From IMG/VR virus record IMGVR_UViG_3300045988_105766: 46,812 bases of DNA. One strand, 5' to 3'. The DNA comes from a virus. The notes below the pieces were generated by a model that was given only the letters and a program-made list of their open reading frames with translations, was not told where the DNA came from and did no database searches. Within the stretch, counting starts at the first letter, position 1. Each line of letters begins with the position of its first letter. Shown piece by piece: positions 1 to 46,812 of the stretch. Both the position numbers and the translations under genes were made by a program.

Positions 1-58
1 AGAGCGGACGGACCCGAATTAGAAGTATTGTTGAACGCCGACCCACGGATAGGCAACC
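1..58 (-). repeat. DGR template repeat (TR), part lying after the circular junction; nt 1-55 duplicate 46758-46812
   Basis: Exact 55-nt identity of the two window ends. Aligns to VR1 655-712 with differences only at plus-strand T positions. Homology ends after ACC at 56-58. Confidence 0.9.
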
Positions 59-91
59 ACCGTAACTTTGTGATTATTTCCCTATGTATTT

Positions 92-502
92 TTATTTCTG
101 TCTTTCCCTGCTGTTGACCCATTCCGAATAACCGCCTATCATTCGACCGATTTCGTCTACCTTTCGCATCCATACTTCCCAAGTGTGGAAATTCAAACAA
201 GGCTTTTGGTTTGGGTATAGGTTCGGGTCTTTTGCAAGTCTTAGCAGATTTCTTAATACATCAACTTCAATATCCAAATCCTGCAATGTGGTTTTCTTGT
301 GGTACTTCTTTTCAAGTCGCACCGCCATTTCCAACATTGTATACATTGTCTTTCTTATATCGCCTGCAAGTACATACCTCTCCGTTTTCGGAAAGTCCTT
401 TAATTGAGGGTTGCCGTACAATATCATTTCATAAATCTTTTCCTTGATATGAAAAATATCATTGCCGTTATGTTTCTTTTCTTCCTGTTGTATCTCTTCC
501 AC
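92..502 (-). CDS. avd: DGR accessory variability determinant (Avd), small helical-bundle protein
   Basis: 136 aa between VR1 and TR. Has Avd-like motifs (FPKTERYVLAGDIRK, C-terminal EIGRMIGGY). Sits in the canonical target-VR-avd-TR-RT position. Confidence 0.85.
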   Translation of the reverse strand: MEEIQQEEKKHNGNDIFHIKEKIYEMILYGNPQLKDFPKTERYVLAGDIRKTMYTMLEMAVRLEKKYHKKTTLQDLDIEVDVLRNLLRLAKDPNLYPNQKPCLNFHTWEVWMRKVDEIGRMIGGYSEWVNSRERQK

Positions 503-538
503 TTTTGCAACCGCCTAACTGTAATGTATTTGCTATAA

Positions 539-560
539 AGGGCGTGCTATCGCACGCCCT
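539..560 (-). promoter_or_regulatory. GC-rich hairpin downstream of VR1 (DGR target-recognition cruciform candidate)
   Basis: GGGCGTGC-TATC-GCACGCCC: 8-9 bp stem with a 4-nt loop (GATA on the coding strand), about 40 nt 3' of the VR1 end. A paralogous hairpin follows VR2; none follows TR. Confidence 0.7.
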
Positions 561-587
561 ATCAGTTTTTCAGTGTTCAGTTTACAG

Positions 588-1631
588 TTACTCAACAAAA
601 GCGGAGCGGAAACCAATGCTGACGTACGAGTGGGAACGAGGGTTACTCAAGTGGAGAGCGGACGGACCCGAATAAGAAGTACTGTCGAACGCCGACCCAC
701 GGAAAGGCAACCTTTCGCCGTGGCATCTCATCCAAATCTGGTCGTTGCCATATCCCGTTACACCGCTGTCCGGGTATAATCCAAGTGCTATAAGCAACTT
801 CGGAATAGTTACCCCGGAAGCTGCCCCAAGGCTCTTAAATGCAATATTTCTGTAAGTATCTCCACTTGTAGGGAACTCAACCTTTGTATTTACTCTGATT
901 CCTGCGGATGCACTTGCCTGGTCTAACTTTAATGTGCCTGCTGTTCCCGGCTCTACTAAAGTTCCGTCCGGCTTAATCGCTTTCCAAAGTGTGCTTTCCG
1001 CCGACATATCGCAATCAAGTTTCATAGAGTTACCATAAGGGATAATCTGAATTTCTCCGTCCATAAGGCGTAATCCACCGGTCCACTCCCAAAGGTTGCC
1101 GTTAATGTCCGCAATGCCCGACATATCGTGATTGTGATACCATGTAGGCTGTCCGCTTCCTGTAAGCGTTCTCTGTGATTCTCCCTGTGGCATTGTTCCC
1201 CTCTCGTAAGGGTGGTAATAATCCTTGCCGTAGTTTGTGTTTCCGTGTGGTACAGTACCCATTTTCTGTGATAACAGGTTAAGGTACGCAAATACACCTG
1301 TCTGATTTAAGTGCCAACCTGCACCTTTCTTTTTGCAAGCTGCTACAGACTGGTCAAAGTTGATATAGTTTCTAGGCAGGTATCCGCCTAAAGAATATGC
1401 ACGGTCATTTTCTACAATATTGAGGAACTTAGACACATAAATTACGCTCTTTTCCTCTCCGTCCATAATCCAAAACGGTAATGTTTCATCTGTTCCGCCT
1501 GTGATTACATCACTATACTTTGCCTTTGGCACTGCTACCATGATGCTAGGCATCCCGGTATCATCAAAAATTACCTTGTTGTTTGCACCAAACTGTGCTA
1601 CTGCACCCTGTAAATCGTCAAAGTTTGCCAT
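588..1631 (-). CDS. DGR variable protein 1 (Mtd-like, C-type lectin / FGE-sulfatase-modifying-factor fold), probable receptor-binding tail fibre protein
   Basis: 347 aa with GWHL, GNLWEWTGG and C-terminal FRGSAF...GFRSAF motifs. VR1 occupies the last 37 codons. It is the last gene of the tail-fibre module. Confidence 0.9.
   Translation of the reverse strand: MANFDDLQGAVAQFGANNKVIFDDTGMPSIMVAVPKAKYSDVITGGTDETLPFWIMDGEEKSVIYVSKFLNIVENDRAYSLGGYLPRNYINFDQSVAACKKKGAGWHLNQTGVFAYLNLLSQKMGTVPHGNTNYGKDYYHPYERGTMPQGESQRTLTGSGQPTWYHNHDMSGIADINGNLWEWTGGLRLMDGEIQIIPYGNSMKLDCDMSAESTLWKAIKPDGTLVEPGTAGTLKLDQASASAGIRVNTKVEFPTSGDTYRNIAFKSLGAASGVTIPKLLIALGLYPDSGVTGYGNDQIWMRCHGERLPFRGSAFDSTSYSGPSALHLSNPRSHSYVSIGFRSAFVE
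600..712 (-). repeat. DGR variable repeat 1 (VR1)
   Basis: 113-nt alignment to TR. The 10 mismatches (619, 622, 626, 632, 646, 653, 674, 682, 686, 704) all fall at plus-strand T of TR, i.e. A on the coding strand. Confidence 0.95.
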
Positions 1632-1652
1632 TGTATTTTATCCTCCTTAAAA

Positions 1653-2003
1653 TTAAATTAACGCCCATAATACAAGCGTACATTTCTTCATATCAAACGG
1701 TACAGGTTCACGCTTCGTAATCGTTTTTCCGTCCTCGTCCTTTTCTCCTGTATCCACAATCTCATATCCCCTTGCCGGGATAATGACCTGTGCCACATAC
1801 TCCCTTGCTTCGGTATTTACGCCAACGGTTAAGCCGTCCTGTGTGTCCTTGCAAATATCAAGCGTTACCTCTTCGTCACGCTCTCGGTTCTTGATGTTTA
1901 CCATTAAATCATCATCCCCGAAAATAATTTTTGTTGTGGATACGTCATAGGCGATTTTCTCGCCCTCGTTTTTCTCAACTACAATAATCTTTGCTGCTGC
2001 CAT
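1653..2003 (-). CDS. hypothetical protein (tail-fibre module)
   Basis: 116-aa ORF tightly packed between the fibre gene and the DGR target; SD-like sequence upstream. Confidence 0.55.
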   Translation of the reverse strand: MAAAKIIVVEKNEGEKIAYDVSTTKIIFGDDDLMVNIKNRERDEEVTLDICKDTQDGLTVGVNTEAREYVAQVIIPARGYEIVDTGEKDEDGKTITKREPVPFDMKKCTLVLWALI

Positions 2004-7911: not shown

Positions 7912-10900
7912 ATACTACCCTGTCCTCCTGTTCTTTTTGTTCTTTCAGAATTGCAACAATGATTGCTCGTAGCTTCTCTAAAAATGCTTCGTCATACTGT
8001 TCTAACTGTTGCTTAATGTTATTTGCTTCGCCGTTTCCGTTCACTACAACGCTTGGCGAATTTTGAACATTTATAACGATTGTGCCGGCCCCACTCATTC
8101 TTGCGGATACATTATCCGCCGTCTGTGCCTGTGAGATATTGTTAAATATCTGTCCTGTCTGTGCTGCCGTAAATACTTTTCTGTTGGCAGCGTTTGTAAT
8201 CAACTCCGGTCCATTCTCTCCGGCTATAAATGTACCCGGTGTCCTGTCTGTACCTTTTGCAAATCCCGGAATCAAAGGTATGTTAATTCCTTTTCCGCCA
8301 AGTCCGGGAACCCAATCCGGCACTTTCAATTTATTAAGTCCACCAATCACGGTATTAACCGCTGATACAACGGCTCGTAATGGTGCTTTGATAATTTCGC
8401 CAAGACCTCCAACCGCTCCCGAAAATATAGACTTAATTCCGTTCCAAGCCTGCGACCAATTACCTGTAAATACGCCTGTCACAAAATCTATAATTCCGCT
8501 TAACACGGTCATAAGATTTTGTATTATGCCCTGCACTGAACCAATCACAGATTGAACCACGGATAAGATTACAGGCATTACAGCTTGCACCACCTGTAAA
8601 ATTCCCTGTACGATTGGTGCTACTATGTTCCAAATTGTTGTTAAGGCAGTTTGAATTACCGGAAGCAATACCGATAAAACATTAGTAACTACAGGCAAAA
8701 TTGCTTGAATCGCTGCCGATATAGCAGGCAGTACGGTACTTGTTATAAAATTGAACAATTCCGATATAATCGGTAATACATAGGTCTGTAAAAACGAGAT
8801 AAGTTCCGATATAATCGGCATCAATCCGGCTATAAAATCGGCAATAATTGGAATGACCGCACCGACAAAATCAACAATACTTTGAATGATTGACATTATC
8901 GTAGGTGCTGCTGCCTGTATGAAACTCACAATACCCGGCACAACATCATTTATAATTACCTGTAATACCTGTTCCGCAACAGGAACTACATAGGTTGTCA
9001 CAAATGCTATTACATCTGATACCGCCGTTTTTACCTTTCCAAGGATATTTACAAGCGTATCAAATACCTGTACGCCTTTATCCCCGAAAATCTCTTGTAT
9101 CTTGTTTCTCGCTTCTCCGATATTGCTATCAGAGAAAATATTTTTAATGGTATCTCCAACATTCGTAATAACCGCTACAATCTTGTCAAAGATTGCCAAC
9201 GCTTCACTTCCGAATGTCTTTTCTATAAATGCTCTGATTTCCTGTAAGTGATTTTTTACCAACTGAATAACAGTAATAATTGTTGTGATTACTCCAACAA
9301 TCGGTAAAATCTTACCTACCACTCCACCAAGCGGACCAAATACGGAACTTGCCAAATTCCCCAACGGTCCAAGCATGGTTTTTATTGCATTTCCTACAGG
9401 TGCTATAAACTTCGTTATTTTCCCGAATCCTGCACCTATGAGATTCCCAACCTTTCCTAAAGGCGAATTTGCTATAACTGTTCCAACTCCCGACAGGATA
9501 CCGCCAAGTTTACCGCCCATTCGTGTAAACGGACTTAAAAACAGGTTAAGTAGTTTTGAACCCGCTCCCATTACAGTACCGCCGATTTTCCCACCGATAC
9601 CGCTAAATACACTACCAATCTTTGTAAACAAGGTGCTGTTGCTTAATACTCCGCCTAATGCACTGCTTACGCCCCCGGCTGCGTTCTTTACGCTTGTGAA
9701 ATATCCAAGAATACCGCTACCGATATTCTTAAAATTCAAAAATCCGCCTGTAAGGCTTTGTAGGTACTTATTCATTCCGATTCCCTTGATTATTTCAAAG
9801 GCTTTTTGAACATTGAGTATTCCGCCTTTTACTTCAAGGAAACCTAGCTTTGCTGCAAGTCCTCCGACTTTTAACCCCGCTAATGCAACCGCAACTTTGG
9901 CAATGGTTTTTGTTGCCTGCGGATTCTCTCTTACAAAATTTGTTACTGCGTTTACTATTTCTGTAAACCTCTTCACACCCTCTGTAAGGGTCGGCAATAA
10001 CAACTCTCCAAGTTCCACCTGTAAAGCATCAAATGCAGATTGTGCCAATGTGATACTTCCGTTAAGGTTATCCAACTTGGTTTCTGCCATTTGTTTAGCT
10101 GCACCGTCACAGTTATATACCGCATCTGTAAGTTTATTAAAATCGGCTTCTGATGCGTTTACGATAGCAAGCATACCCGCAAAACTTTCTTTTCCGAAAA
10201 TCGTTGTTGCTGCTGCCACCTGTTCCGCTTCGGACAATCCGCCCAAACTGCTTCGGAGGTTCTTTACTACATCCCCGAAACTCTTCATAGAGCCGTCTGC
10301 ATTTGTAAGGCTTATGCCGTATTTCTCCATTGCTGCCGCTTGTGCATCTGTCGGCTTCGCCATATTGGCTAATGCTGTCTTTAAACTTGTACCTGCGACC
10401 TCTGCCTTAATACTTGCATTTGCCATAAGTCCAATACCTAAAGACATATCCTCTACGCTATACCCTAATGCTCCGGCTACAGGTGCGACCTTTTGGAATG
10501 TTGACCCCATCATACTTACATTGGTGTTTGCATTGCTTGATGCCTGTGCCAATACGTCTGAAAAATGCCCGGCATCTGATGCACTCAACCCAAAAGCCGT
10601 TAAGGCATCCGTTACAATATCGGATACACCTGCCAAATCTTCCCCGGAAGCTGCTGCAAGGTTCATAATACCCTCGATACCGCCTAACATATCCTCGGTT
10701 TTCCAACCTGCCATAGCCATATATTCCATAGCCTGTCCGGCTTCTGTTGCGGTAAACTTTGTTGATGCTCCCATTTCTTTAGCTTTGTTTGAAAGTTTGG
10801 CGATTTCCTCAGTTGTTGCTCCCGATATTGCCTTTACTCCCGACATCTGCTCTTGAAATTCGGCTGCCTTTTTAACCGGTCCGACATATATCGCCGTTCC

Positions 10901-22991: not shown

Positions 22992-23110
22992 GTGGCGTGT
23001 GCCTGTGTCCGCCTGTGGTGCTGTGTGTGGTGTGTGCCTGCCTGTGCGTGCGTGTGTGAGCGTGTGGCGGTGCGTGGCGTGGCTACTGCTGCCGTGTGCC
23101 TGTGCCTATA
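22992..23110. repeat. A-depleted GT-rich tract with three GTGTGCCTG copies (putative cosB-like terminase-binding region)
   Basis: About 119 nt with about 4 A on the plus strand. GTGTGCCTG starts at 22997, 23032 and 23094. Flanked by an 11-nt direct repeat CCTCGCCGTCC (22981-22991 and 23111-23121). Confidence 0.45.
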
Positions 23111-23906
23111 CCTCGCCGTCCTCGCTGTCCTCTGTGTAGCTATCGTCTATCTCTCCTGTATCGGGGTCTACATCATACTCCCCGCTTATCTTCTGCTTCA
23201 TCAATGCGTACCGCTTCTCTTCCAATGTGATACGGCGTTGCTCTAACTCATAGGACTTTATAGTATCCAATAGCTTTATGATTCTGCCGTGTACTTTATT
23301 AAGCTGGTCCTCTAACTTCATTGCTCTTTCAAAGGCAGATGATTTAATAGTTGTTTCCATAGCCACACTTAGAGCCGGTCCCTGTGGTGTATCCTTGCCG
23401 TCCTCATTGTATGCACCGTATGGGTCTGCATCCTCTCCCTCTTTTCCGGGCGTACGCATTTCTACAACCTTGTCTGTGTATAGGTTGCCTGTGGTGTCTG
23501 TGTTTAATTCTTTTATCCTTTTTTCCAAATCTTTTTCTTTGGCTATAAGGCTTTGTAATTCTCTTAATGTATTTTCCCCTGTATCAAGGGTAACTGATTC
23601 TATCAAGGCTTTTTCATCCTCTGATAATTCATCAAAATACACCTTAGAATATGCCCCGTGTGTTTCTGCGTTTTTATTTCTCACAGGGGCCCCGTGACCC
23701 TTGGCGTTTTTATTGCCTTTTTGTCCGCCCCTCTTTTTTGGTTTATTTTCAAGTGCATCATTCCACTTATCTACGCACTTCCATTTTCGTACCTTTGCCG
23801 AATCAATCCCCAAGGCTTCCGCAATTTCTGTATTCTTCATTAAGCCGTCTGAATCTAAAAAAAGTTGCTTCGCCTTTTCCCTGTTTTCGTCTTTCTGTCT
23901 TGCCAA
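23106..23906 (-). CDS. YjcR-like HTH protein (terminase-small-subunit-like)
   Basis: TTG start at 23906 with AGGAGG 7 nt upstream. N-terminus MARQKDENREKAKQLF..IAEALGI..KVRKWK, plus a GNKNAKGHGAP repeat region. Confidence 0.6.
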   Translation of the reverse strand: MARQKDENREKAKQLFLDSDGLMKNTEIAEALGIDSAKVRKWKCVDKWNDALENKPKKRGGQKGNKNAKGHGAPVRNKNAETHGAYSKVYFDELSEDEKALIESVTLDTGENTLRELQSLIAKEKDLEKRIKELNTDTTGNLYTDKVVEMRTPGKEGEDADPYGAYNEDGKDTPQGPALSVAMETTIKSSAFERAMKLEDQLNKVHGRIIKLLDTIKSYELEQRRITLEEKRYALMKQKISGEYDVDPDTGEIDDSYTEDSEDGEV

Positions 23907-24003
23907 GTCAAAACCTCCTTTCGTTTGTTTTCCCGGTTTTCGGCTTTCCGTTCTTTCGGAATCTTCGCATTTTTGCAAATTCAAATTTTTATAACACGAA
24001 AAG

Positions 24004-24034
24004 GCAACAGGATTTAACAATAAAATCCTGCTGC
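24004..24034 (-). terminator. leader hairpin plus U-rich tract downstream of late-promoter-like element 1
   Basis: 12-bp stem (one G-U pair) with a 7-nt loop, followed on the minus strand by CUUUUCGUGUU. Lies between the -10 box (24058-24063) and the gene start at 23906. Confidence 0.5.
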
Positions 24035-24057
24035 CCTGCTTCGCTTTTCATCTTAGT

Positions 24058-24092
24058 ATTATACTACATAAAATCGGGCAATAGCGGGCAAT
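24058..24092 (-). promoter_or_regulatory. late-promoter-like element 1: tandem ATTGCCCG x2 plus TATAAT
   Basis: Minus strand reads ATTGCCCGctATTGCCCG-11 nt-TATAAT. Lies just downstream of the sigma-like regulator gene and upstream of the packaging genes. Confidence 0.55.
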
Positions 24093-24094
24093 CT

Positions 24095-24574
24095 TTAATG
24101 CAAAACCTCTTTTAAAATTTTGCTTCGTGATACATTTCTATTCCTTGCTAATTTTCCGCCTAAGACCTCTAAGGCAACGCACCTTATATTTTTACTCTGC
24201 CGGACAGAATAACTAATCTGTTCCGCTATGCGTTCCCATTTTTGACCCTGTAAGTAAAATCCGCATATAATAGCTTTGTGAATCGGAGTTAAGGAATAAA
24301 TCTCTTTTGATATTTCCGTTCTCAATTTCTTTAACTCCTGTATTCTGTCCTTTAATTCCTTAATTCTTTCTGCGGTATCTGTACCTGCTATTTCGATTGC
24401 AAGCAGAGCCGTAGAATCGCTTGTATTACTTCCGTGTGGCATACCGTCATAGTTAATTGCCCCTGTGGTATCATACACGCTTTCGTACCGCTCTAGCCAC
24501 TCGCCTGTAACCTTAATATCAAGGTCAATATCTTTGTAAAATTTTAAGATTGCTTCTACTTCCCAATTCTTCAT
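24095..24574 (-). CDS. putative late-gene transcriptional regulator (sigma-70 region-4-like HTH; ArpU/RinA/DUF1492-type position)
   Basis: 159 aa with a C-terminal HTH (WERIAEQISYSVRQSKNIRCVAL). It is the last gene before the packaging module. Confidence 0.6.
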   Translation of the reverse strand: MKNWEVEAILKFYKDIDLDIKVTGEWLERYESVYDTTGAINYDGMPHGSNTSDSTALLAIEIAGTDTAERIKELKDRIQELKKLRTEISKEIYSLTPIHKAIICGFYLQGQKWERIAEQISYSVRQSKNIRCVALEVLGGKLARNRNVSRSKILKEVLH

Positions 24575-24592
24575 TTTATGCTATCCTTTCTT

Positions 24593-24937
24593 TTATGGTG
24601 GTCTGTATTTTTCACACCATTTGATACTTGCTTTTCCTGTAGCTTCGATTTCTGCTATACAACTGCTGCCGTGCTTCGTCCTCTTGGCTTCGCAAGATTC
24701 GCAAATATCCGATTCTGCTATATCAAAAATATCTTTTAACCTCTCTGCAAGGTCTTTTATTTTCTCCATAAGCAAATCAAAGGATTGCATGAATTGATTT
24801 ATTAAATCGCACGTTTCTTTTTCTGTTTTTCCAATTTGTGCAGACGGGCAGGCAACCAATATAGATGATTGATTGCTTGCCTTTTCTTCTCCGCACCAAA
24901 TAACGCCCTCCTTGTATTCGATACGGTCCATACGCAC
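24593..24937 (-). CDS. hypothetical Cys-containing protein
   Basis: 114-aa ORF. Confidence 0.5.
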   Translation of the reverse strand: MRMDRIEYKEGVIWCGEEKASNQSSILVACPSAQIGKTEKETCDLINQFMQSFDLLMEKIKDLAERLKDIFDIAESDICESCEAKRTKHGSSCIAEIEATGKASIKWCEKYRPP

Positions 24938-24940
24938 CGC

Positions 24941-26392
24941 CTAACCCTGTAAGTATTTCTGATACTCTACCGTTTTACCCATTACCCATACAGATAAGGC
25001 GTTGGTTAATCTACTTTCCCATTCTGCCGGGCAGATATTTCCGTTTTCGGATTCTGTCATAATAACTTTTCTTACCTCTTTCTGTATCATGTTATATTGA
25101 CCTGTTCCGTATTTTTTACTTATCCATTCCGTAAAGGATAATCCCTTTTCCTGTGGTTCGGGTACATATTCCGGGTAATCGCTCATATCCTGTTGCCCCG
25201 GTAAGTTGTCGTTTTCCGCTTCGTCCTCCTGTGTTTTCTCCGGCTCATTCATAAAACTGCTTTCCTGTGTTTCCTCGGCATCCTCTTCCTCTGTCGGTCC
25301 CTGTGGTGCTTCCTCTTCGGAATCATCATAGGTCAATTCTTCTGTTTCAATCATCAATGCAACGATTTCCGCAAGGTCGGCATATTCGATAATGTATGTA
25401 CTCCAATCCTCCTTAATCTGTATTGCCATTCCCTCCGTTTGGAATCTGTAGATAAATTCTTTTCCGTTGAGGTCTAAGGTCTTGGCTGTAAATGTCTTTG
25501 AAAAATGCTTAATCAATTCTTTTTCAACTGCTGCCACATTACCTTTAACCTTGAATATCGCACGGTTTACCTCTCCCTTTAATGCTTCCTTGATTGCTTT
25601 CTGTACCTGTTCCGCCTGTTCGTCTGTTATCTCCGGCTTTGGCTCTTCTTTCACGTCATTTATATGTAATTCGCCTTTTTCCTCGTATTTTTCGTAAGCC
25701 TGTTTCTGCCCCTCTTCATTAAGTCGGCTAAGTTCGTGGGCGGTAGAAATATTGATATTGCCTTTTTCCAATTCATTCTTAAACTCCTGTGATAAATTGT
25801 TTTCAATGGTTTCCATTCTTCCAATCTGCGTAGTTGATGTATTAAGCATTTGTGCCACAATATCACGGATACGCCCCATTTTCTTCCTTTCCGCTTTCGG
25901 CTTATCCTTGTTTTCTTCCTGCAAGGCTCTCTTGTACTCGGTAAGGATTTCTTTTAATTCCTTTGCCTGCTGCACCTTTTCCCAATCCGTAAGCTGTCTT
26001 GCCGTTGCATTGGTAAATATAAGGCTTAACTTGTCCTTGATTGTGTCGGATTCCTTTTTGATAAGGCACGGCACTTTTCTATATTCTTCTTTGCCCTCCT
26101 GTACCAACTTCAAGGCTGCAAGTCTACGGCGGTGTCCTGCGATTACCTCGTATTTTCCGTGCGCTTCCGGCTTTACTACTAAATTCTGCTCGATATGTCC
26201 GACCAACTCAATAGACATTGCTAATTCGTCTATATTCTCTGTGGAATAGAAATTATCCTTACTTGGCATTAAATCCTCTACATCAAGCATTGTGACCTTA
26301 AATTCCTGTTCCTGTTCTGCCGGTCCCTGTTCCTGTACTGCTGCCCCTTTGCTTTTCGCATTGAGTAAGTCGTTAATGTTAAATCCTGCCAT
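24941..26392 (-). CDS. ParB-like N-terminal (ParB/Srx) domain protein
   Basis: 483 aa with the GHRRRLAALKL motif, a central HTH-like region and an acidic linker. Confidence 0.8.
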   Translation of the reverse strand: MAGFNINDLLNAKSKGAAVQEQGPAEQEQEFKVTMLDVEDLMPSKDNFYSTENIDELAMSIELVGHIEQNLVVKPEAHGKYEVIAGHRRRLAALKLVQEGKEEYRKVPCLIKKESDTIKDKLSLIFTNATARQLTDWEKVQQAKELKEILTEYKRALQEENKDKPKAERKKMGRIRDIVAQMLNTSTTQIGRMETIENNLSQEFKNELEKGNINISTAHELSRLNEEGQKQAYEKYEEKGELHINDVKEEPKPEITDEQAEQVQKAIKEALKGEVNRAIFKVKGNVAAVEKELIKHFSKTFTAKTLDLNGKEFIYRFQTEGMAIQIKEDWSTYIIEYADLAEIVALMIETEELTYDDSEEEAPQGPTEEEDAEETQESSFMNEPEKTQEDEAENDNLPGQQDMSDYPEYVPEPQEKGLSFTEWISKKYGTGQYNMIQKEVRKVIMTESENGNICPAEWESRLTNALSVWVMGKTVEYQKYLQG

Positions 26393-26567
26393 TGCTCTTT
26401 CCTCCTATTCTCAAAATGCCTATACCTTTCCATTTTTCTGTGTCCGAATCGGTCACAATTTTTCTGATATTATCAAGCGTTTTTTCATTCTCTATGTATC
26501 TGATATAATCTCGCTTCGGAATCAATACCATTTCTTCCTTTTCCTCTGTGATAATTCCGCAATCCAC
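26379..26567 (-). CDS. hypothetical small protein (contains motif copy D)
   Basis: 62-aa ORF overlapping the parB-like start. Confidence 0.4.
   Translation of the reverse strand: MDCGIITEEKEEMVLIPKRDYIRYIENEKTLDNIRKIVTDSDTEKWKGIGILRIGGKSNGRI
26439..26457. repeat. 19-bp near-palindrome copy D (TGTGTCCGAATCGGTCACA)
   Basis: 47 nt upstream of the parB-like start, within the 62-aa ORF; reads VTDSDT. Confidence 0.8.
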
Positions 26568-26773
26568 TATCTATACTCCTTTCCTGTATCTTTATCTCTC
26601 AATACGATACGTCCGACCATTTCATACCCTGCAATATCTATCATCTGCTTTAATACGCTTACAAGGTTTGTTACTTCCGGGTTGTATTCCCTTTTCTTTA
26701 CCTTTGGTTCTGTTTCGTGGATTGCTGCCCCGGCTGTGGGGTCGGCATATCCCTCTTTGTTTCTGTATGCCAT
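26567..26773 (-). CDS. hypothetical small protein
   Basis: 68 aa from MAYRNKEGYADPTAGAA. The 131-aa track ORF was trimmed because it overlaps parA. Confidence 0.5.
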   Translation of the reverse strand: MAYRNKEGYADPTAGAAIHETEPKVKKREYNPEVTNLVSVLKQMIDIAGYEMVGRIVLRDKDTGKEYR

Positions 26774-26774
26774 T

Positions 26775-27527
26775 CTATCCCTCCAAATACTCCTTAACGA
26801 ATGTCTTGTAATCCCTTGCTGCTCCCGACCTCGGAGAATACTGCATAAGGCTTTGTGTGGTAAATGTGACCTCGTCCGCCTTTTCCGTTCTCCTAATATG
26901 TGTTCTGAATACCGGGTATCTCTGATTCTGCAAGTATTCCTCTCCCTGTCTGCATACATCACGGTTATAGAACATTGTTACAAGGCATCCTCTAAACTTT
27001 AATTTCGGGTTAAGCTGTTTTGCATTGTTTATCTGTTCCTCTAATTCTTTCATGCCGTCAAATGCGTAGCCGTCAATCTTAATCGGTATAATAACCTCGT
27101 CTGCTGCCACTAAGGCATTTATGACAGATATATTTATATCCGGCGGACAATCAATAATACAGTAATCAAATATGTCCTTTACCTTTTCCAATTCCTTAGA
27201 CAGGATTGTTACTTGGTCTATATCCTCGTTCTTGATTACATCAAGGTTTGCTGTTAAAAGGCTCATATTGGCAGGTACAACAGCAATGTTCCCATTTGCC
27301 CCAAGCTGCATTACATCCGTTAATGTTTTCTCTCCTGTAAGCACATCCGCAAAACTCGGTGCTTCATCATTCCATACACCGCACGCCTTGGATAAATTCC
27401 CCTGCTTGTCGTTGTCGATAATCAATACTTTCTTGTCGTAATCTTCCGCTAAGATATAACCCATGTTTACACTTGTGGTTGTCTTAGCACATCCGCCTTT
27501 CATGTTAATAATTGCAATAGTTTTCAT
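26775..27527 (-). CDS. parA: ParA/Soj-family partition ATPase
   Basis: 250 aa with deviant Walker A (NMKGGCAKTTT). Confidence 0.9.
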   Translation of the reverse strand: MKTIAIINMKGGCAKTTTSVNMGYILAEDYDKKVLIIDNDKQGNLSKACGVWNDEAPSFADVLTGEKTLTDVMQLGANGNIAVVPANMSLLTANLDVIKNEDIDQVTILSKELEKVKDIFDYCIIDCPPDINISVINALVAADEVIIPIKIDGYAFDGMKELEEQINNAKQLNPKLKFRGCLVTMFYNRDVCRQGEEYLQNQRYPVFRTHIRRTEKADEVTFTTQSLMQYSPRSGAARDYKTFVKEYLEG

Positions 27528-27796
27528 TTGCTTTTACCTCCTGTTAATACTCTTTGTGCTTCCTTAAAGTCCATTTTCTTAAATGCTCTAAGTATCCGGG
27601 CGAATACCGCCCCTGCCCGTCTGCCAAGTTCCTTATTCATAAAAGCTAAATCCTCGGAAGTAAATACTACTTTTAATTCCGGGTCGTTTATGATATTTTT
27701 GGCTTGTATTACCTCGATACCGCATAGGGTTCTTACTCCGCTTTTGAAATAATCCCTATCCTCCTGTGTCATTGGTATTTTTCCTATATTTGCCAT
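27524..27796 (-). CDS. hypothetical protein
   Basis: 90-aa ORF overlapping the parA start by 4 nt. Confidence 0.5.
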   Translation of the reverse strand: MANIGKIPMTQEDRDYFKSGVRTLCGIEVIQAKNIINDPELKVVFTSEDLAFMNKELGRRAGAVFARILRAFKKMDFKEAQRVLTGGKSK

Positions 27797-27936
27797 ATCG
27801 TTTTATCCCTTTCTATTGGTTTTCCACATTCGGGGCAAAATTTTAACGGTCTTGGACTAAATGTTATTTCCCCTCTTTTTCTATTCATTCTGTCGTATGT
27901 CCGAATTGTTATTTTTACCTTTGCAACATTTGTCAT
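27784..27936 (-). CDS. possible small zinc-ribbon protein (50 aa, below the track cutoff)
   Basis: ATG at 27936, TAG at 27784. Contains FCPECG. Translated by hand. Confidence 0.3.
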   Translation of the reverse strand: MTNVAKVKITIRTYDRMNRKRGEITFSPRPLKFCPECGKPIERDKTIWQI

Positions 27937-28350
27937 TTTTTTGCTCTTCATTCGGAAGTCCTGTAAAAATTTCTCTGTTTTCTTTAATCTCTTTACATGT
28001 TTTACAAGTTTTCAATTCTTTTCCTCCTTTCCTGTGTGTTTGCACACTTTATACAATTTCTAAATGGCTTTAGGCACTCTATAAAGCGTGCAAGCCTGTT
28101 TTATGGTGGACTTCTTGGCATATATCCACCGCCTTTCCCGGCTATGTGATAGGCGTTGCAATTTTTCGCATTAAAAAATTACTAAAAACCTGTCGACTTA
28201 CTGCACGCTCTCTAGTTGGCGTACCCACTGCTATTTTTTCACTCTATCCCTGCTACGGCTATTGGCTTGCCCTCGTCAGAAAACAGGTTGCCGACCTGTC
28301 TTGACGGCTCGTGGCGGTTGCCCCTTGCCGTTTCGGCTCTTTGCCGTGTT

Positions 28351-28629
28351 TTATATCTCAAAATTATTTGTTGCTATTGCTAATTCTCTTAATGCTTCCT
28401 CTTTACCGCAAATTTTATAGTATTCAGATAGTAGTTGCATTGTCTTTATTGTTTGTCCTCTCTTTATAAGTTCCTCTGCCAACTTTTCAATTCCACACCA
28501 TTTATTGCCGTCTCCTTTTTCAAAACATAATTCCTGTAATTCGTGAAATATCTTTGTTTTTCTATCATCTAATGCAGAAATATTTTTATTCCATTCTGTG
28601 TATTTCTCTTTCAACTGTACTTTTGTCAT
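28351..28629 (-). CDS. hypothetical protein
   Basis: 92-aa ORF, the first gene after operator cluster 1. Confidence 0.55.
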   Translation of the reverse strand: MTKVQLKEKYTEWNKNISALDDRKTKIFHELQELCFEKGDGNKWCGIEKLAEELIKRGQTIKTMQLLSEYYKICGKEEALRELAIATNNFEI

Positions 28630-28669
28630 ATCTCTTACCTCCGTTTTGCTTTCCTTTGATGATTTTATT

Positions 28670-28768
28670 ATATACTTATATAAGTATATTTACAACCCGG
28701 GATAATCAACAAATATACTTATATAAGTACATCTATCTTTTGTGCAACTTGTATACTTATATAAGTAT
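28670..28768. promoter_or_regulatory. operator cluster 1: three copies of the ATACTTATATAAGTAT palindrome
   Basis: Copies at 28670-28689 (perfect 20-bp palindrome), 28715-28730 (15/16) and 28753-28768 (16/16). Intergenic, upstream of the start at 28629. Confidence 0.75.
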
Positions 28769-29064
28769 CATTCCTGTATTGTCTTTTTCTTCTCTTCCAA
28801 CTGCTTCCTTTTGTCTTTCAGATATTCCATATATTCTCCGTATGTCATTCCCGGCGGTGTGATTCTTCTTTGTGCTTCTCTCGCCTGTTTCGCCTTTTGG
28901 CTTAATACTGCTGCCTTGCTTACCGTCTTTTTCTCTTCTCTCTTTGGTTCTTCGGGTTTAATCCCTAATCTCCTTGCCTGTCGGTTTGGCTTTGCCTTGT
29001 TATATGTCAATGTCCTTTCCTGTTGGAATGGTATTACTTTCCTGTTTCTTCTCTTCTTTGCCAT
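28768..29064 (-). CDS. hypothetical basic protein
   Basis: Start set at MAKKRRNRK. Lys/Arg-rich. Confidence 0.45.
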   Translation of the reverse strand: MAKKRRNRKVIPFQQERTLTYNKAKPNRQARRLGIKPEEPKREEKKTVSKAAVLSQKAKQAREAQRRITPPGMTYGEYMEYLKDKRKQLEEKKKTIQE

Positions 29065-29284
29065 AACTGCCCCTTTCCAAATCGTCCGCAATTTCTGTTA
29101 TACTCTGCATACAGGCTTTTATATTCGTGTCCGTGTCTGCCGTTATGCTTAATATGTTGCTTATCTGTCGTAACCTTTTTATCTGTTTTGGGTCAACTGC
29201 TGCCTTTTTCAGACATTCCGGGCATATCTCTATGCCCTCCAATGCCTTTTCTCCACATAAGCTACATTTCTTCATGTGTACCAA
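29000..29284 (-). CDS. hypothetical CxxC...CxxC protein
   Basis: 94 aa with CSLCG...CPEC. Confidence 0.45.
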   Translation of the reverse strand: MVHMKKCSLCGEKALEGIEICPECLKKAAVDPKQIKRLRQISNILSITADTDTNIKACMQSITEIADDLERGSYGKEEKKQESNTIPTGKDIDI

Positions 29285-29342
29285 CTCCTATTTTCTAAAG
29301 AACTTCAATACTCTTTCGTTCCACCAATACTTAAATACCGCC

Positions 29343-30509
29343 TTATAAAAGGCTCTCGTCTTTTCTTTCATTGTTCTTTTCTTCCTCCTGTAGGATTCGT
29401 ATAATGCCTATATAGAGCCTTTCCGCACAATATACGCATATACTGTTACCTATTGCCCTGTATCGTGCCGTATCGGCTATAATATTGCCGTCTGCTCCGT
29501 ATTTCGTCCAATCGTCCGGGTATCCCTGTAATCGTTCTCCCTCAACAGGTGTAAGCCTGCGGATTATATATACAACTTTCTGTGTTGCTTTCTTCAACAG
29601 GTCTTTAATGCTTTTCTTTGGAGTGCTAGGGATATTCCCCTTTGTCTTGGTACTCTCTGTTATCAGAGTTTCCGACCCTCCGCCGTAAGCCCCCCCCGCT
29701 GCCCTTAAAGTGCCGTTAATCTGTGTTTCCCTGTATCCTCCGTGCTGATTCTCTTCAAAGGCTTTCTTATCGGTTACAATCAATGGGGTATCTCCCCTTA
29801 CGGTATTATTCTGTCCTGCGGTTAATGTTCCGCTTGTATCGCTCTCCCTGTATCCGTGGTGTTGGTATGCTTCGTAAAATACGCTGTGAATATCTGCCGT
29901 TGTGAGTGTCGGGCAAGGTCCCCCGACCTTTCCAACGCCTAATCCGTTGCTTGCCTTATTTCTTGTAACTTCATCCCTTAAAGGTATTACGCTTCGTTTC
30001 TCTTCGTACATGATGCAAGGTGTTTGACCTCCGCCACGCCCCATATTCTGTACTAAGGTTGGGGTAATATCTTTATATGTTCTTACCACGCTGTCGGCGT
30101 GTGCAAAATCAAGACCTAAAACCTCCCCCCCCTCGGCTACTTTCTGCTCTAAGGCTATTCGTAGATTGTCCGGCAGCTTCCGCCCTTTGTTCTTTGCTCT
30201 TCGGAGTATACCCAAGCACGCTTTCGCACTTAAATAATATTTCTCCGGCACGTTGTCCTCCAAAATCTCCGATAAGGTAGATTCGTTTTCTACGTTGGGG
30301 TACTCCCCAATATTGAGCATCAAGGATTCTCCAAGCGGTGTCAACCTCCCCCCCTCTAACCATTCCTGCGGTTGCCCATTTACCACTTGCAGGCATTGGA
30401 ATATTGGCGTTTGTGACTTTTTCAAGCACGGCTCTAAAATCCTCTCCGCCGTTACTTGAAAAAGCTCCGGGTACGTTCTCCCAAATAATGAAAGTTGGAT
30501 ATTGTCCAT
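29343..30509 (-). CDS. C5 DNA methyltransferase, C-terminal part (TRD plus motifs IX-X); its first 133 codons lie in an alternative frame of the N-terminal part
   Basis: RRLTPVEGERLQGYPDDWT and RYRAIGNSI motifs. ATG 30509 has GAGG about 10 nt upstream. Overlaps 30109-30855 by 401 nt. Confidence 0.7.
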   Translation of the reverse strand: MDNIQLSLFGRTYPELFQVTAERILEPCLKKSQTPIFQCLQVVNGQPQEWLEGGRLTPLGESLMLNIGEYPNVENESTLSEILEDNVPEKYYLSAKACLGILRRAKNKGRKLPDNLRIALEQKVAEGGEVLGLDFAHADSVVRTYKDITPTLVQNMGRGGGQTPCIMYEEKRSVIPLRDEVTRNKASNGLGVGKVGGPCPTLTTADIHSVFYEAYQHHGYRESDTSGTLTAGQNNTVRGDTPLIVTDKKAFEENQHGGYRETQINGTLRAAGGAYGGGSETLITESTKTKGNIPSTPKKSIKDLLKKATQKVVYIIRRLTPVEGERLQGYPDDWTKYGADGNIIADTARYRAIGNSICVYCAERLYIGIIRILQEEEKNNERKDESLL

Positions 30510-30855
30510 TTGTTGCTAACCTCATTTCTCTTATAATTCTTATTGCGTGTATGAATAACCCGGAACGATTACCTTTAAGTCCTTTTCTCTTTCCGGCTAT
30601 GCTCAAATCTTGGCAAGGACTTCCAAAGGTTATAATATCCACGGGTTGTATTTCATCCCCTTTAAGTTCCGTAACGCTTCCAACGTGCATTACATCCTTA
30701 AAACGGTATCTTGTTATGTCGATACAATTCGGTTCTACCTCTGCGGCCCATAACGGTTTAATGGTGCATCCTGTATCTATCCCGCTCGGTATGCCTGCTG
30801 CATAGCAGAAACCTCCGATACCGTCAAATAGGCTACCTAGTGTTAATTGTTTCAA
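30109..30855 (-). CDS. C5 DNA methyltransferase, N-terminal part (motifs I-VIII), ending just after a G8 tract
   Basis: LGSLFDGIGGF (I), FGSPCQDLS (IV), ENVPG (VI), QRRKRIYL (VIII). TTG start at 30855 with GGAGGG 6 nt upstream. Confidence 0.85.
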   Translation of the reverse strand: MKQLTLGSLFDGIGGFCYAAGIPSGIDTGCTIKPLWAAEVEPNCIDITRYRFKDVMHVGSVTELKGDEIQPVDIITFGSPCQDLSIAGKRKGLKGNRSGLFIHAIRIIREMRLATNGQYPTFIIWENVPGAFSSNGGEDFRAVLEKVTNANIPMPASGKWATAGMVRGGEVDTAWRILDAQYWGVPQRRKRIYLIGDFGGQRAGEILFKCESVLGYTPKSKEQRAEAAGQSTNSLRAESSRGGGGFRS

Positions 30856-31166
30856 CGCTTGCCCTCCTTTCTGTTTTTCTTCTCCTGTTTTCTCTTGGCG
30901 TATTCCTGTAAGTATCTTTCCTGTTCTTTGTCCTCTTCCATTCTTGCTAATCTTTTTTGATACCTTTTGTATATTTTGCAATCCTTTTCGCAATCGGGGC
31001 AAGTTCTATACGGACACCCGATACATTCATGTAATCCGCCGTTCTCGTCCATATCAATACCGAATACATAAGAGAAAAACATAATAGCGAACGGAAGAAT
31101 AAATAATACTGCTGCCACGGCAACAATGATTAAAATTACTGTTATTATTGTTTTCATTCCTGCCAA
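30852..31166 (-). CDS. small membrane protein with a Cys cluster
   Basis: 104 aa with an N-terminal TM segment and CIGCPYRTCPDCEKDC. Confidence 0.5.
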   Translation of the reverse strand: MAGMKTIITVILIIVAVAAVLFILPFAIMFFSYVFGIDMDENGGLHECIGCPYRTCPDCEKDCKIYKRYQKRLARMEEDKEQERYLQEYAKRKQEKKNRKEGKR

Positions 31167-31447
31167 TCCTCCAACTTTTTAACCCTTGTCTGTAGGTTGC
31201 TTATTGTTACTTTCATTTCCTCAATCTGATAAGGCAGTACGTCCGTATTCTCAAACATATAAAGGACTTCTACCGCCCGGCTTATCGGTACACCGTTTTT
31301 TATTCTCGGTTTGTTGGTCTTTGGGTCAATCTCTGTAAGTCTGCTGTTCTTTGGTTTCCTCTTGGTGTCCTTTGCCGGTCCTGGCATTGCTTTATTCATC
31401 ATCTTGTAATACGGAATCTCTGCCCCTACAATTCCGTTAAGTCGCAC
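31154..31447 (-). CDS. hypothetical protein
   Basis: 97-aa ORF. Confidence 0.45.
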   Translation of the reverse strand: MRLNGIVGAEIPYYKMMNKAMPGPAKDTKRKPKNSRLTEIDPKTNKPRIKNGVPISRAVEVLYMFENTDVLPYQIEEMKVTISNLQTRVKKLEDWQE

Positions 31448-31811
31448 TTGCTAAACCTCCTTGTGTTGTTTCGTTTTCCGCTTTCTTACTCGCTACTGCT
31501 GCCGTGTTTATCTCCTGCTCCAACTTCTCCCAAATCAGAGGAATCATTAACTTACAAACTATCATTGTGTGTATTCTGCTTGGTGCTTCCGTCAATCTCT
31601 CGCACATATATACGAACAATAAGCCTGCATTGGCATCCCCCTCCCAATCCGGGTTATCTTCTCTTGATTTCTTAAATAGTGCCGTTTCTTTGTACTGCTG
31701 CCCTAACTCCTGTAAGATTTCTATTGAACGGTCTGTAAATATTACCTCTCCGCCCTCTTTGACCTCTGTAACGGTCAACAGTTCCATAATTTTATCTTTT
31801 TCGCTCTGCAT
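31437..31811 (-). CDS. hypothetical protein
   Basis: 124-aa ORF. Confidence 0.45.
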   Translation of the reverse strand: MQSEKDKIMELLTVTEVKEGGEVIFTDRSIEILQELGQQYKETALFKKSREDNPDWEGDANAGLLFVYMCERLTEAPSRIHTMIVCKLMIPLIWEKLEQEINTAAVASKKAENETTQGGLASAT

Positions 31812-32421
31812 TTTCGTATGCTCCTTTCAATTCCTCGGTGTGCATTAAGAAGTGTACCGCTCCGTCAAACTTTACTTTGTATTCTTCTATATCCTCGGAT
31901 TTTAAATACTGTCTGCCGTACATTTCTTTCATATCTCGCCATACATTCCAAGGAATAAAGAAAAAATCATCCTGTATACAGATACACACCCCACATAACG
32001 CTCCTAATCTGCTGTGTTTTTCCAATACGTCCATTTGCGTATCTGTGAGCACGTTCCGGGTTATCCTGTCTTTACTCGTCCTCTTGGCTTCAAACATTAT
32101 CGAACGCCCACCGTATAAGGTCCCTTGAAAGTCAGGCTGTGCGTGTGTGCTGAATCTCCCTGTAAATTCTCCTGTCCTGTGGTTCTTACTCGTTACTCTG
32201 AACGGCTCTGGCGTTTTATCAATGCTTGCTATTCCGTGGCTTTCGTACATTCTGCACCCGGCTAATATCTCTCTTTCAAAGTGCTGCCCCTGTGCATTGT
32301 TAAGCCTGTTCTTGTACTGCTGTCGTATCTTATTTTCGTCTACTGCTGCACCTCTTGCATTTTTCCATGCCTGCAACTCTTTTTCTGTGTCCGATTCGGT
32401 CACAATCCCTTTGTTTATCAA
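31792..32421 (-). CDS. recU: RecU-like Holliday junction resolvase
   Basis: 209 aa with HFEREI...QPDFQG...GGRSIMFEAKRT, matching the RecU catalytic pattern. Confidence 0.7.
   Translation of the reverse strand: MINKGIVTESDTEKELQAWKNARGAAVDENKIRQQYKNRLNNAQGQHFEREILAGCRMYESHGIASIDKTPEPFRVTSKNHRTGEFTGRFSTHAQPDFQGTLYGGRSIMFEAKRTSKDRITRNVLTDTQMDVLEKHSRLGALCGVCICIQDDFFFIPWNVWRDMKEMYGRQYLKSEDIEEYKVKFDGAVHFLMHTEELKGAYENAERKR
32386..32404. repeat. 19-bp near-palindrome copy E (TGTGTCCGATTCGGTCACA)
   Basis: Inside the recU-like CDS (aa 7-12); reads VTESDT. Confidence 0.8.
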
Positions 32422-32669
32422 TGTTTTTCGCTCCTTTTTGTTAGTTCATTCCACGGTATCAACTGCATACGTTTTTTACCGTCTAATTCGTAAATAAATG
32501 ATACTGTTCCATTTTTTAAGCTATGTTCTGTGATAATGTCCGTTATCTGCATTTCTGCTGTGCCTAATCTTCTCGGATAGCCTGTAATAGCCATTCCCTC
32601 AATTATTGCAACTTCTACAATATCGCCCAACTCATAAGGGCAATGTGCCATGAATACCGCCTGCTGCAT
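32418..32669 (-). CDS. hypothetical protein
   Basis: 83-aa ORF. Confidence 0.45.
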   Translation of the reverse strand: MQQAVFMAHCPYELGDIVEVAIIEGMAITGYPRRLGTAEMQITDIITEHSLKNGTVSFIYELDGKKRMQLIPWNELTKRSEKH

Positions 32670-32670
32670 A

Positions 32671-33898: not shown

Positions 33899-33901
33899 TC
33901 T

Positions 33902-34771: not shown

Positions 34772-34824
34772 ACCGTTTATTCTCCTTATACTACAAGTCC
34801 ATAAGGGTACACCTATTAAACCAT

Positions 34825-34856
34825 ATACTTATACAAGTATAGTCTTATATAAGTAT
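34825..34856. promoter_or_regulatory. operator cluster 2: two abutting degenerate palindrome copies
   Basis: Copies at 34825-34840 (15/16) and 34841-34856 (14/16), upstream of the start at 34771. Confidence 0.6.
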
Positions 34857-34952
34857 ATAATTTTATGAATGTCCTAGATGTTAATACCCCATACAAGGTC
34901 CTCAACACGCCCTTTTTATAGCCTTTTGGCGTGTGATTTCAAGGCTTTTTTA

Positions 34953-34981: not shown

Positions 34982-34987
34982 TTGAAT

Positions 34988-44974: not shown

Positions 44975-45286
44975 CTATGTTTCCTGTCCGTGTGCCTTTT
45001 GATTGATATGTTTTTCAATCTTTCCTATGGCTTCCGTGACCGGTCCGTTACATCCCTGTTCTTTAAGTCCTTTCAGACACGCCAATACCGCATAAGTGAG
45101 TAAGCATAATTCATCTTCCATTGCCTTTATGTCCTCTTTCTCCTGCTTCTTTAAATCCTCAATATCGGTTGTCTGCTTTTCCTGTGCCTGAAACCATTTG
45201 ATAATCTTGTATGCAACCGCACCAATGGCAGTTAATGCCCCTAATACGCTTGCAATAGTTATAATTGCTGCTGAATCAATATACAT
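44975..45286 (-). CDS. small membrane protein with a coiled-coil tail
   Basis: Start set at MYIDSAAIITIASVLGAL (ATG 45286). The track start at 45331 would overlap the RT gene by 56 nt. Confidence 0.45.
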   Translation of the reverse strand: MYIDSAAIITIASVLGALTAIGAVAYKIIKWFQAQEKQTTDIEDLKKQEKEDIKAMEDELCLLTYAVLACLKGLKEQGCNGPVTEAIGKIEKHINQKAHGQET

Positions 45287-46490
45287 TGTGTGTAATTTCC
45301 TTTCCTTGCAGTTTGCAATATGGCGTAGCAAATCCGCAAAAATAACTTTCGGTATAGTTCGGGCAGTTATTGCAATTTCCTGTACATCTACTTACCTCTT
45401 CTTTTTTCTCTACCATACCGTTTTCCTTAAACAGGGTGTTAAGGCTCTGCCTAAGTCCGTAACTGTTAAAATGTGACAGGATACCACGATATGAAGCTAC
45501 CGAACGGTCTAACCTGTCTTTTCTTTCTTCTCCTGCTTTTACCTTTGCAATCTGATTTTTAAGATTACGTTTGATTTTTACCGCCGTTTTCTTCTTTAAT
45601 CTGCGGTGCGTAGACCATATTCTAAAGCCTACAAAATCAACGCCCATACTACACGGTCTGATAGTCGTTTTATTATTCAAATCTAACCTTAATTCGTCTG
45701 ATAAGAACGCCCTTAACAACTCTTTGACCTCTGCCAAATACTTTTTATCGTGGTGGAGTATGATAATATCGTCCATATATCGGATGTAGTAATGCAATCC
45801 CAACTCATGTTTTGCGTATTGGTCTACCTCATTAAGGTAAATGTTTGCAAACATCTGTGAGGTAAGGTTGCCTATCGGCATCCCCTTGTTGCTCAATCTG
45901 TCCGATACTGCCACTTCGTCCGGCTCTTTTCCGGGCGGTAATCCAAAATTCATAGATTCGCAATTTATAATCTTTTCTAACAGGTTAAGTAATCGTTGGT
46001 CTTTAATCCTGCGTGCTAAAATCTTTAATAAAATATCGTGGTCTACCCTGTAGAAATACTTTGATATATCCATTTTCAGATAATAGTACCGTTCCGGCTT
46101 CCTTTCAGTCTGCCTTAACCAATACTGTAACCTGTCGGCTGCCTTATGTGTTCCCTTGCCCTTGCGACAGGCGTAGGAATCAAAGATAAATGTCTTTTCG
46201 TACAACGGAAATAACTGCCTGTAAATCGCCCATTGTACTATCCTGTCCTTAAATGGCAAGGACATAATGAGCCTTTTCTTCGGCTCGTAAACATAAAAGG
46301 TGTGATACTTTCCTACCTCGTATGTTTCATAAATTAAGTGATTCTGAATATTTATTAACTGCTCTTCGTAGTTGCGGTTGAAAATCAATACATCATCCCT
46401 GTACCTCTTTCCTTTTCTCGCTTCCTCCCAAGCCTTATGTAAATTCTCAAAATCATAAATCTTTTCGTATATATTCTTTATGCTTTGCAT
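45276..46490 (-). CDS. DGR reverse transcriptase
   Basis: 404 aa with the GMPIGNLTSQMFANIYL motif (a DGR hallmark), YMDD and FVGF. Lies immediately 3' of TR. Confidence 0.95.
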   Translation of the reverse strand: MQSIKNIYEKIYDFENLHKAWEEARKGKRYRDDVLIFNRNYEEQLINIQNHLIYETYEVGKYHTFYVYEPKKRLIMSLPFKDRIVQWAIYRQLFPLYEKTFIFDSYACRKGKGTHKAADRLQYWLRQTERKPERYYYLKMDISKYFYRVDHDILLKILARRIKDQRLLNLLEKIINCESMNFGLPPGKEPDEVAVSDRLSNKGMPIGNLTSQMFANIYLNEVDQYAKHELGLHYYIRYMDDIIILHHDKKYLAEVKELLRAFLSDELRLDLNNKTTIRPCSMGVDFVGFRIWSTHRRLKKKTAVKIKRNLKNQIAKVKAGEERKDRLDRSVASYRGILSHFNSYGLRQSLNTLFKENGMVEKKEEVSRCTGNCNNCPNYTESYFCGFATPYCKLQGKEITHNVY

Positions 46491-46702
46491 TGCATACCTC
46501 TTGTAAATTTGTGCCGTACAAACCTAATCAGTTTTTAACCCTTTCGGACGTGACAAATATATTTCTTTTCGGCTTACGCTTACTAACTGTCTTTACAGCA
46601 ATTCAATCTTTTTCCTGTCTACAGGAACGGAAAATAACCCCTTTAACCCTGTTTGTACTGTCCTTGCGGTCGTAACCGTAAGGCTTCTTGACATAGGGGC
46701 AG
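46491..46702 (-). ncRNA. TR-RT spacer, probably part of the DGR template/primer RNA
   Basis: A 212-nt non-coding segment between TR and the RT start. No credible ORF. Confidence 0.45.
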
Positions 46703-46812
46703 AGCGGAGCGGAAACCAATGTTGTCGTTCGAGTTGGAACGAGGGTTATTCAAGTTGAGAGCGGACGGACCCGAATTAGAAGTATTGTTGAACGCCGACC
46801 CACGGATAGGCA
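46703..46812 (-). repeat. DGR template repeat (TR), continuing at 56-58 across the circular junction
   Basis: 113 nt in total. Contains 22 coding-strand adenines, 18 of them in nine AAC/AAT codons. It is the only copy retaining A at all VR-variable positions. Confidence 0.95.

Follow-up and report, generated by a model that had tools for sequence, protein, structure and literature searches.

The window, by which we mean the whole stretch of 46,812 nt of viral DNA that was analysed, is a circular assembly in which bases 1-55 duplicate bases 46758-46812. With this 55-nt terminal overlap taken into account, the true circle is 46,757 bp. Nearly all of the genes of the window are carried on the minus strand, and they include a DGR, the parts of which lie on both sides of the assembly junction as follows.

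1..58, minus strand: assembly overlap (1-55, the repeat of 46758-46812) and end of TR (56-58, its last 3 nt).
92..502, minus strand: avd (136 aa); PF22296, 86.8 bits (cut-off 40); NF033474 equivalog, 94.2 bits (cut-off 80); phrog_3206.
539..599, minus strand: VR-specific 3' flank of VR1, absent from TR; CTG motifs, four in number and at intervals of about 7-8 nt, followed by a hairpin.
539-560, minus strand: the hairpin 3' of VR1, with a GC-rich 9-bp stem and a 4-nt loop.
588..1631, minus strand: target 1 gene (347 aa), coding for a variable protein with a TaqVP-like C-type-lectin fold of the FGE subtype; phrog_2889; stands last, behind the P2-type baseplate genes.
600..712, minus strand: VR1, variable repeat, encoding about residues 308-343 of target 1; 10 of 22 adenine-templated sites differ from TR.
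45276..46490, minus strand: DGR reverse transcriptase (RT, 404 aa); RVT_1, 1e-26; phrog_1423; IGNLTSQ and YMDD motifs.
46554..46704, minus strand: spacer RNA, directly 3' of TR; Rfam RT-14 (RF02921), 51.0 bits (gathering score 48.1).
46703..46812, continuing at 56-58, minus strand: TR, template repeat (first 110 of 113 nt, then the last 3 nt), with 22 adenines.

Reading along the minus strand, P2-type baseplate genes (phrog_14404 and phrog_6, with Tail_P2_I on the adjoining gene) are followed by four small ORFs and target 1, and then by avd, TR, a 212-nt spacer at the end of which the RT gene starts, two small ORFs, and an amidase/SH3 endolysin. The coordinates of TR are split in two because the circle was linearised within TR, which is an artefact of the assembly. 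The junction is genuine: it runs unbroken through TR in the nearest genome compared (G001), and also in a Logan contig from run ERR1578645, which was assembled independently. From 45845 onwards and through the junction, the Logan contig reproduces the circularised window letter for letter; it covers VR1-avd-TR-RT and has an identical VR1 haplotype. A mis-joined circular junction is ruled out by the contiguity in these two sequences.

The best solved relative of the RT is 8ub7_A (E 3e-50), which we take to be the BPP-1 bRT, and it stands far ahead of the group II intron and retron RTs. The C-terminal residues from about 355 to 404 (window 45276-45430, minus strand) form a tail of about 50 residues past the region matching 8ub7_A and the PHROG; this tail is rich in Cys (CTGNCNNC...C...C), and the following ORF (44975-45331) overlaps it. 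The RT-14 match covers the first 150 nt of the spacer, beginning from the last base of TR, and RT-14 was found at the same place in 11 of 15 related loci (the equivalent position in L010-L025, L001, and L038). RT-14 belongs to the orphan 'RT' motifs described by Weinberg et al. 2017, a paper in which RT-10 was tied to the BPP-1 spacer and other RT motifs were speculated to serve other DGRs (PMC5737381). The RT-14 spacer is probably the priming and RT-Avd-binding part of the DGR RNA. If this is true, RT-14 is the DGR spacer RNA of this clade, in parallel to RT-10 in BPP-1. Judged from the sequence, the DGR is complete, with target, Avd, TR, RT-14-type spacer RNA, and bRT-like RT all intact on the minus strand.

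The alignment of VR1 with TR is ungapped, with 103 identities in 113 nt. The original prediction placed all ten mismatches (619, 622, 626, 632, 646, 653, 674, 682, 686, and 704) where TR has T on the plus strand, that is, A on the coding strand, and our ungapped realignment returned the same ten positions. It had also claimed that there are no further differences, and none of the 91 non-adenine sites was found to be changed. A recount gave 22 adenines per 113 nt of TR, so the statement that 12 of them are unchanged in VR1 stands as well. The proposed recoding (I>F, N>D, N>S, N>Y, N>H, N>S, N>H, N>Y, D>V, and N>S) was reproduced in the 588-1631(-) frame, where it affects ten separate codons. 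One detail required correction: the variable residues had been assigned to the last 37 residues, but they are residues 310-339 of 347 and thus fall within the last 38. A VR/TR mismatch at a non-adenine site, which the original prediction had named as contrary evidence, is absent from this window for VR1. Among the relatives, about 4% of the mismatches are at non-adenine sites, so a strict adenine-only criterion exceeds the biology of the family.

The genome contains the 110-nt repeat in three copies, the third of which lies in a second target gene.

36721..36740, minus strand: hairpin 3' of VR2, with an 8-bp stem and a 4-nt loop; the counterpart of 539-560.
36747..37727, minus strand: target 2 gene (326 aa), 42% identical to its paralogue target 1; phrog_2889; PF03781.
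36783..36892, minus strand: VR2, second variable repeat; 15 mismatches to TR, 15 of 15 at adenines.

Target 2 matches PF03781 with 31.1 bits (cut-off 23.3) and is located in the early region near the attachment site, about 10 kb from the rest of the element. None of the 88 non-adenine sites of VR2 differs from TR.

A pattern scan of IMG/VR provided 20 further repeat copies, and ten VR/cognate-TR pairs were used for mismatch counts. In the ten pairs, adenines accounted for 123 mismatches, or 56% per site, and all other positions for 5, or 0.57% per site, corresponding to an adenine specificity of about 100-fold. The spectrum consisted of A>G (62), A>T (37), and A>C (24), and every one of the 22 adenines was changed at least once. 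In L028 and L039, non-adenine changes of TR are also present in their VRs; this sharing shows that TR and VR evolve in concert at such sites, that TR is the stable copy, and that transfer runs from TR to VR. In L035 (IMGVR_UViG_3300029790_000147; 9170-9273 compared with 9824-9927), a G>A change of TR at offset 65 is not in VR1, and a TR change at offset 75 is shared. The TR of L035 may have mutated after the last homing. Three non-adenine mismatches, in the G001 VR1 (L001 2045-2157) and in the VRs of L028 and L034, are situated at TR offsets 103 and 105, adjoining the adenine of the I310 codon (offset 104), which is itself changed in all three cases. Errors may cluster close to the template's 5' end, as far as this small sample shows. 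A repeat copy in L031 (IMGVR_UViG_3300014803_000049; 2869-2972) has a VR2-type 3' flank and a TR-type 5' flank; it arose either when the assembler jumped from one repeat to another or by true recombination between TR and VR.

Three copies of a 110-nt repeat in one genome could in principle have come to differ by ordinary divergence or gene conversion among paralogues, with no retroelement involved. The hypergeometric probability of 10 of 10 mismatches falling on 22 of 113 sites is 1e-8 for VR1, and that of the 15 of 15 in VR2 is 1.5e-13; chance is excluded because of these values. The unchanged state of all 91 non-adenine sites of VR1, the placement of the TR adenines within codons (see below), the 100-fold adenine specificity over the ten pairs, and the complete RT and Avd genes beside TR also oppose divergence of paralogues, the probability of which we regard as virtually nil. 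The adenine-confined mismatches together with the adjoining RT and Avd effectively refute it.

The 22 adenines of TR occupy codon position 1 (12 adenines) or position 2 (10 adenines), a distribution with a chance probability of about 1e-4. They belong to 13 codons, namely nine AAY codons, ATC, ACT, GAC, and ATT. Since all of the adenines are at positions 1 and 2 of these 13 codons, each event recodes at most 13 residues and no stop codon is reachable. The computed repertoire is 4^22 = 1.8e13 DNA sequences and 15^9 x 4^4 = 9.8e12 protein sequences. VR1 ends 4 codons before the stop codon of target 1.

The natural variation of target 1 follows the same pattern. Its 90%-identity cluster has 6817 distinct members. 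Among 17 sampled variants, all 17 haplotypes were distinct, and the mean entropy was 2.16 bits at the 13 adenine-templated positions (310, 316, 317, 318, 320, 327, 329, 330, 334, 336, 337, 338, and 339) compared with 0.015 bits elsewhere. Every residue observed at these positions can be produced by A>N changes (I/F/L/V at ATC, T/A at ACT, and D/G/V at GAC), with a single exception, N at position 337. The near-confinement of the variation to the 13 adenine-templated codons bears out the claim that VR1 is a sampled variant. For target 2, the corresponding 90%-identity cluster comprises 3570 distinct members, and the variation behaves like that of target 1.

The prophage form of the phage is present in G001 (C1:2662405-2708922), and its junction corresponds to the following site of the window.

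38511-38518: attachment site, beside the recombinase gene (38553-39590, minus strand); junction in the G001 prophage.

Since the G001 prophage ends at this site, the window represents the excised circular form of a temperate phage. The carrier of the DGR is a temperate myophage with a P2-like baseplate, from gut Lachnospiraceae. Comparison of window 56-2000 (1945 bp) with the G001 prophage detected 12 differences, all of which are in VR1 (625-703), and the TR sequences are identical. VR1 and VR2 of G001 both differ from those of the window. The stretch of about 31 kb that starts at 38511, crosses the junction, and ends at 23000 contains only about 19 others (approximately 0.06%). The divergence of the VRs, with an identical TR at about 0.06% divergence, indicates diversification within the very short divergence time of the two genomes. 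As for the rest of the genome, the alignment of window 23000-38500 with G001 is mosaic. Identity to the G001 prophage is about 99.9% across the late, lysis, and DGR regions but only 90-97% in the early region, where gaps interrupt the alignment. The mosaic divergence, as read from the two sequences, suggests module exchange.

The original prediction had interpreted VR1 as one variant sampled by the DGR rather than as a product of decay. The intact DGR parts, and the constancy of TR as against the variability of VR1 in a nearly identical prophage, agree with this interpretation. The comparison between the genomes supports recent activity of the DGR, and on the same comparison the element would still be active in this genome. 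The single haplotype assembled in the window would also be expected of a relic DGR, in which mutagenic homing took place in the past, the element is now dead, and VR1 is a fixed allele; however, the RT, Avd, TR, spacer RNA, and both VR flanks are intact, and a prophage that is about 0.06% apart over 31 kb carries another VR1 and another VR2 with the same TR. We therefore consider a dead element highly unlikely.

A further possibility concerns the haplotype rather than the element: the assembled VR1 might be a chimeric consensus of co-existing variants, in which case the adenine pattern would be real but the ten-change haplotype would not. DGR loci are known to complicate assembly (PMC5883640), and the L031 contig, in which a VR2-type flank is joined to a TR-type flank, is suggestive of assembler jumps among repeats of this family. 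In addition, the haplotype was taken from metagenome assemblies and could be a majority path, and its two assemblies may share one sample. Against this, the same 347-aa protein and the same DNA were obtained from two pipelines (Logan and ENA k119), and the Logan contig is exact across VR1-avd-TR-RT. A chimeric origin of the haplotype thus appears extremely unlikely, and we take the ten changes as belonging to one real variant produced by the DGR.

Both VRs end in an adenine-free GC-rich block, GGTTTCCGCTCCGCT, which is common to TR. Beyond this block, the flanks of VR1 and VR2 (36721-36782 for VR2) resemble each other, not TR, and both have the CTG array and the hairpin. The array and a hairpin with a GRTA loop are kept in 15 related genome loci and in phage Saumur (L010-L025 and L042). 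Across the relatives, the stem of the hairpin shows compensatory changes, occurring as GGGCGTGC, GGGTGTGC, GGGTGCGC, and GGGCTTGC, each with its complement. By analogy with BPP-1, the 539-599 flank is a putative target-recognition element, comparable to the IMH flank and cruciform. To our knowledge, a CTG array has not been described for DGRs. We also considered the hairpin at 539-560 as an intrinsic terminator. Such a role is unlikely because the hairpin has no following T-run; avd lies downstream in the same direction, and VR2 has the same hairpin.

Target 1 matches TaqVP (5VF4) over residues 9-346 with an E value of 2.5e-55 and an identity of about 36% at the sequence level. An AlphaFold2 model was built from 137 homologues obtained by a profile search, and it had a pLDDT of 92.5 and a pTM of 0.91. 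A Foldseek search with the model gave 5VF4 as the first hit (TM-score 0.90, E 2e-41), followed by Mtd, TvpA, FGE-family enzymes (human FGE), and EgtB. The C-type-lectin/FGE-like fold that had been proposed for this protein is accordingly upheld by both the sequence match and the TM-score of the model to 5VF4. The 5VF4 entry was released in 2017, before the AlphaFold2 training cut-off, and the model of target 1 is therefore not fully independent of 5VF4. In the model, the variable residues are distributed over the loops 313-321 and 331-338 and the adjoining strand ends. On homology with TaqVP, the 13 variable residues would lie on one exposed face, in the ligand-binding site.

No Pfam family was matched by target 1 at E <= 0.01, PF03781 (FGE-sulfatase) included, and no NCBIfam match was found. 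Many homologues with 45-55% identity to target 1 carry PF03781. Because these homologues and target 2 match the Pfam model that misses target 1, target 1 is a divergent relative of PF03781. Its position after the baseplate genes has been described above, and target 1 is most likely a receptor-binding tail protein. If so, the DGR would most likely vary the specificity of host adsorption.

Taken together, VR1 is very probably the recipient repeat of an active DGR in a temperate P2-like-baseplate myophage of gut Lachnospiraceae. In the mechanism that we propose, TR and the adjoining RT-14-type spacer would be transcribed, by homology with Bordetella phage BPP-1. The RT-Avd complex would then prime on the spacer and copy TR into cDNA, inserting random bases opposite the template adenines. 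The cDNA would replace VR1 and, independently, VR2, and this replacement may be guided by the shared adenine-free GC-rich 3' end together with the VR-specific CTG array and hairpin. Each event would recode up to 13 residues at the C-terminal ligand-binding site of the TaqVP-type lectin fold, giving a repertoire of about 1e13 proteins. We infer the biochemistry of the element, the roles of its flanks, and its receptor-binding function.

The DGR resembles that of BPP-1 (mtd-VR-avd-TR-Sp-brt) in several respects. The gene order of target, avd, TR, spacer, and RT is the same, Avd is present, and the RT is a relative of 8ub7_A with the IG(N/S)LTSQ and YMDD motifs. Both systems have adenine-specific mutagenesis with AAY codons in TR, a C-terminal VR in a C-type-lectin fold, a repertoire of about 1e13, and a GC-rich hairpin with a 4-nt loop 3' of the VR. 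The position of the hairpin differs: Guo et al. 2011 are said to have placed the BPP-1 hairpin a few nt beyond the end of homology, whereas the hairpin here is about 40 nt past that end, with the CTG array in between. BPP-1 has one target in contrast to the two targets here, and the spacer RNA is of the RT-14 type here but of the RT-10 type in BPP-1 (PMC5737381). These features allow the tentative and rather doubtful idea that this widespread clade of gut-Clostridia DGRs has an undescribed target-recognition and priming module, made up of the orphan motif RT-14 as spacer RNA and, about 40 nt past the homology at every target, of the four-fold CTG array with its GRTA-loop hairpin, and in which one TR would program two paralogous lectins, the early-gene one maybe acting outside the virion.

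The closest structural comparison is with TaqVP, the variable protein of a prophage DGR of Thermus aquaticus, to which target 1 is homologous over its full length. The VR of TaqVP is likewise C-terminal and ends in an invariant beta-5 strand, and eight of its nine variable residues have a variable counterpart in the alignment with target 1: I344, N351, V354, Y361, N364, S368, R370, and G372 correspond to 310, 317, 320, 327, 330, 334, 336, and 338, respectively. The five additional variable residues of target 1 (316, 318, 329, 337, and 339) are the immediate neighbours of these eight. An invariant aromatic residue of TaqVP, W349, aligns with F315. [quoted passage not shown] The two proteins differ in that TaqVP has 9 variable residues and 3e9 variants, compared with 13 residues and about 1e13 variants here, and target 1 is about 35 residues shorter. 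The hosts also differ, being a mesophilic gut Lachnospiraceae and Thermus, respectively.

A megablast search with window 1-2000 gave no match among the deposited phages, and the relatives were found at the protein level only. The closest deposited phage is Clostridium phage Saumur (ON453901), the target of which is 57% identical and in which Avd and RT are annotated. Its synteny is the same as here (baseplate genes, small ORFs, target, Avd, TR, RT, two ORFs, and endolysin), adenines account for 15 of its 16 TR/VR mismatches, and Saumur retains both the hairpin and the CTG array. The target of Faecalibacterium phage FP_Lagaffe (MG711461) is 40% identical, and a report on this phage describes a DGR whose target is of the FGE type and whose VR varies among reads (PMC5883640). 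The C. clostridioforme prophage LM41phi3 has two phrog_2889 ORFs, Avd, and RT (PMC11318856). All three phages have phrog_2889 targets, and Saumur and FP_Lagaffe have two matching places per genome. In LM41phi3, Orf13 and Orf71 (Table 3) were annotated as 'FGE sulfatase enzyme / host metabolism', not as DGR targets (PMC11318856). By the sequence evidence here, these phrog_2889 proteins of LM41phi3 are DGR variable proteins.

The same layout with adenine-only mismatches was found in 14 related genome loci in addition to phage Saumur, and related loci are present in many Lachnospiraceae genomes. Homologues with 75-76% identity and the same DGR layout were also found on contigs of two Bacteroidota MAGs, a Bacteroides sp. 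MAG (L018) and a Paludibacter sp. MAG (P0111); since all of the other hosts are Lachnospiraceae, these phage contigs are likely to have been mis-binned.

The element is thus an ordinary further case of the well-known DGR system, and it leaves the knowledge of DGRs unchanged. It is a clean and well-documented case of a gut phage protein under targeted hypermutation, for which thousands of natural variants exist in public data. The results can be used for the annotation of phrog_2889 proteins that are still labelled 'hypothetical' or 'FGE/host metabolism'. Further uses are the reading of micro-diversity in gut viromes and the provision of a compact lectin scaffold that has 13 variable sites.
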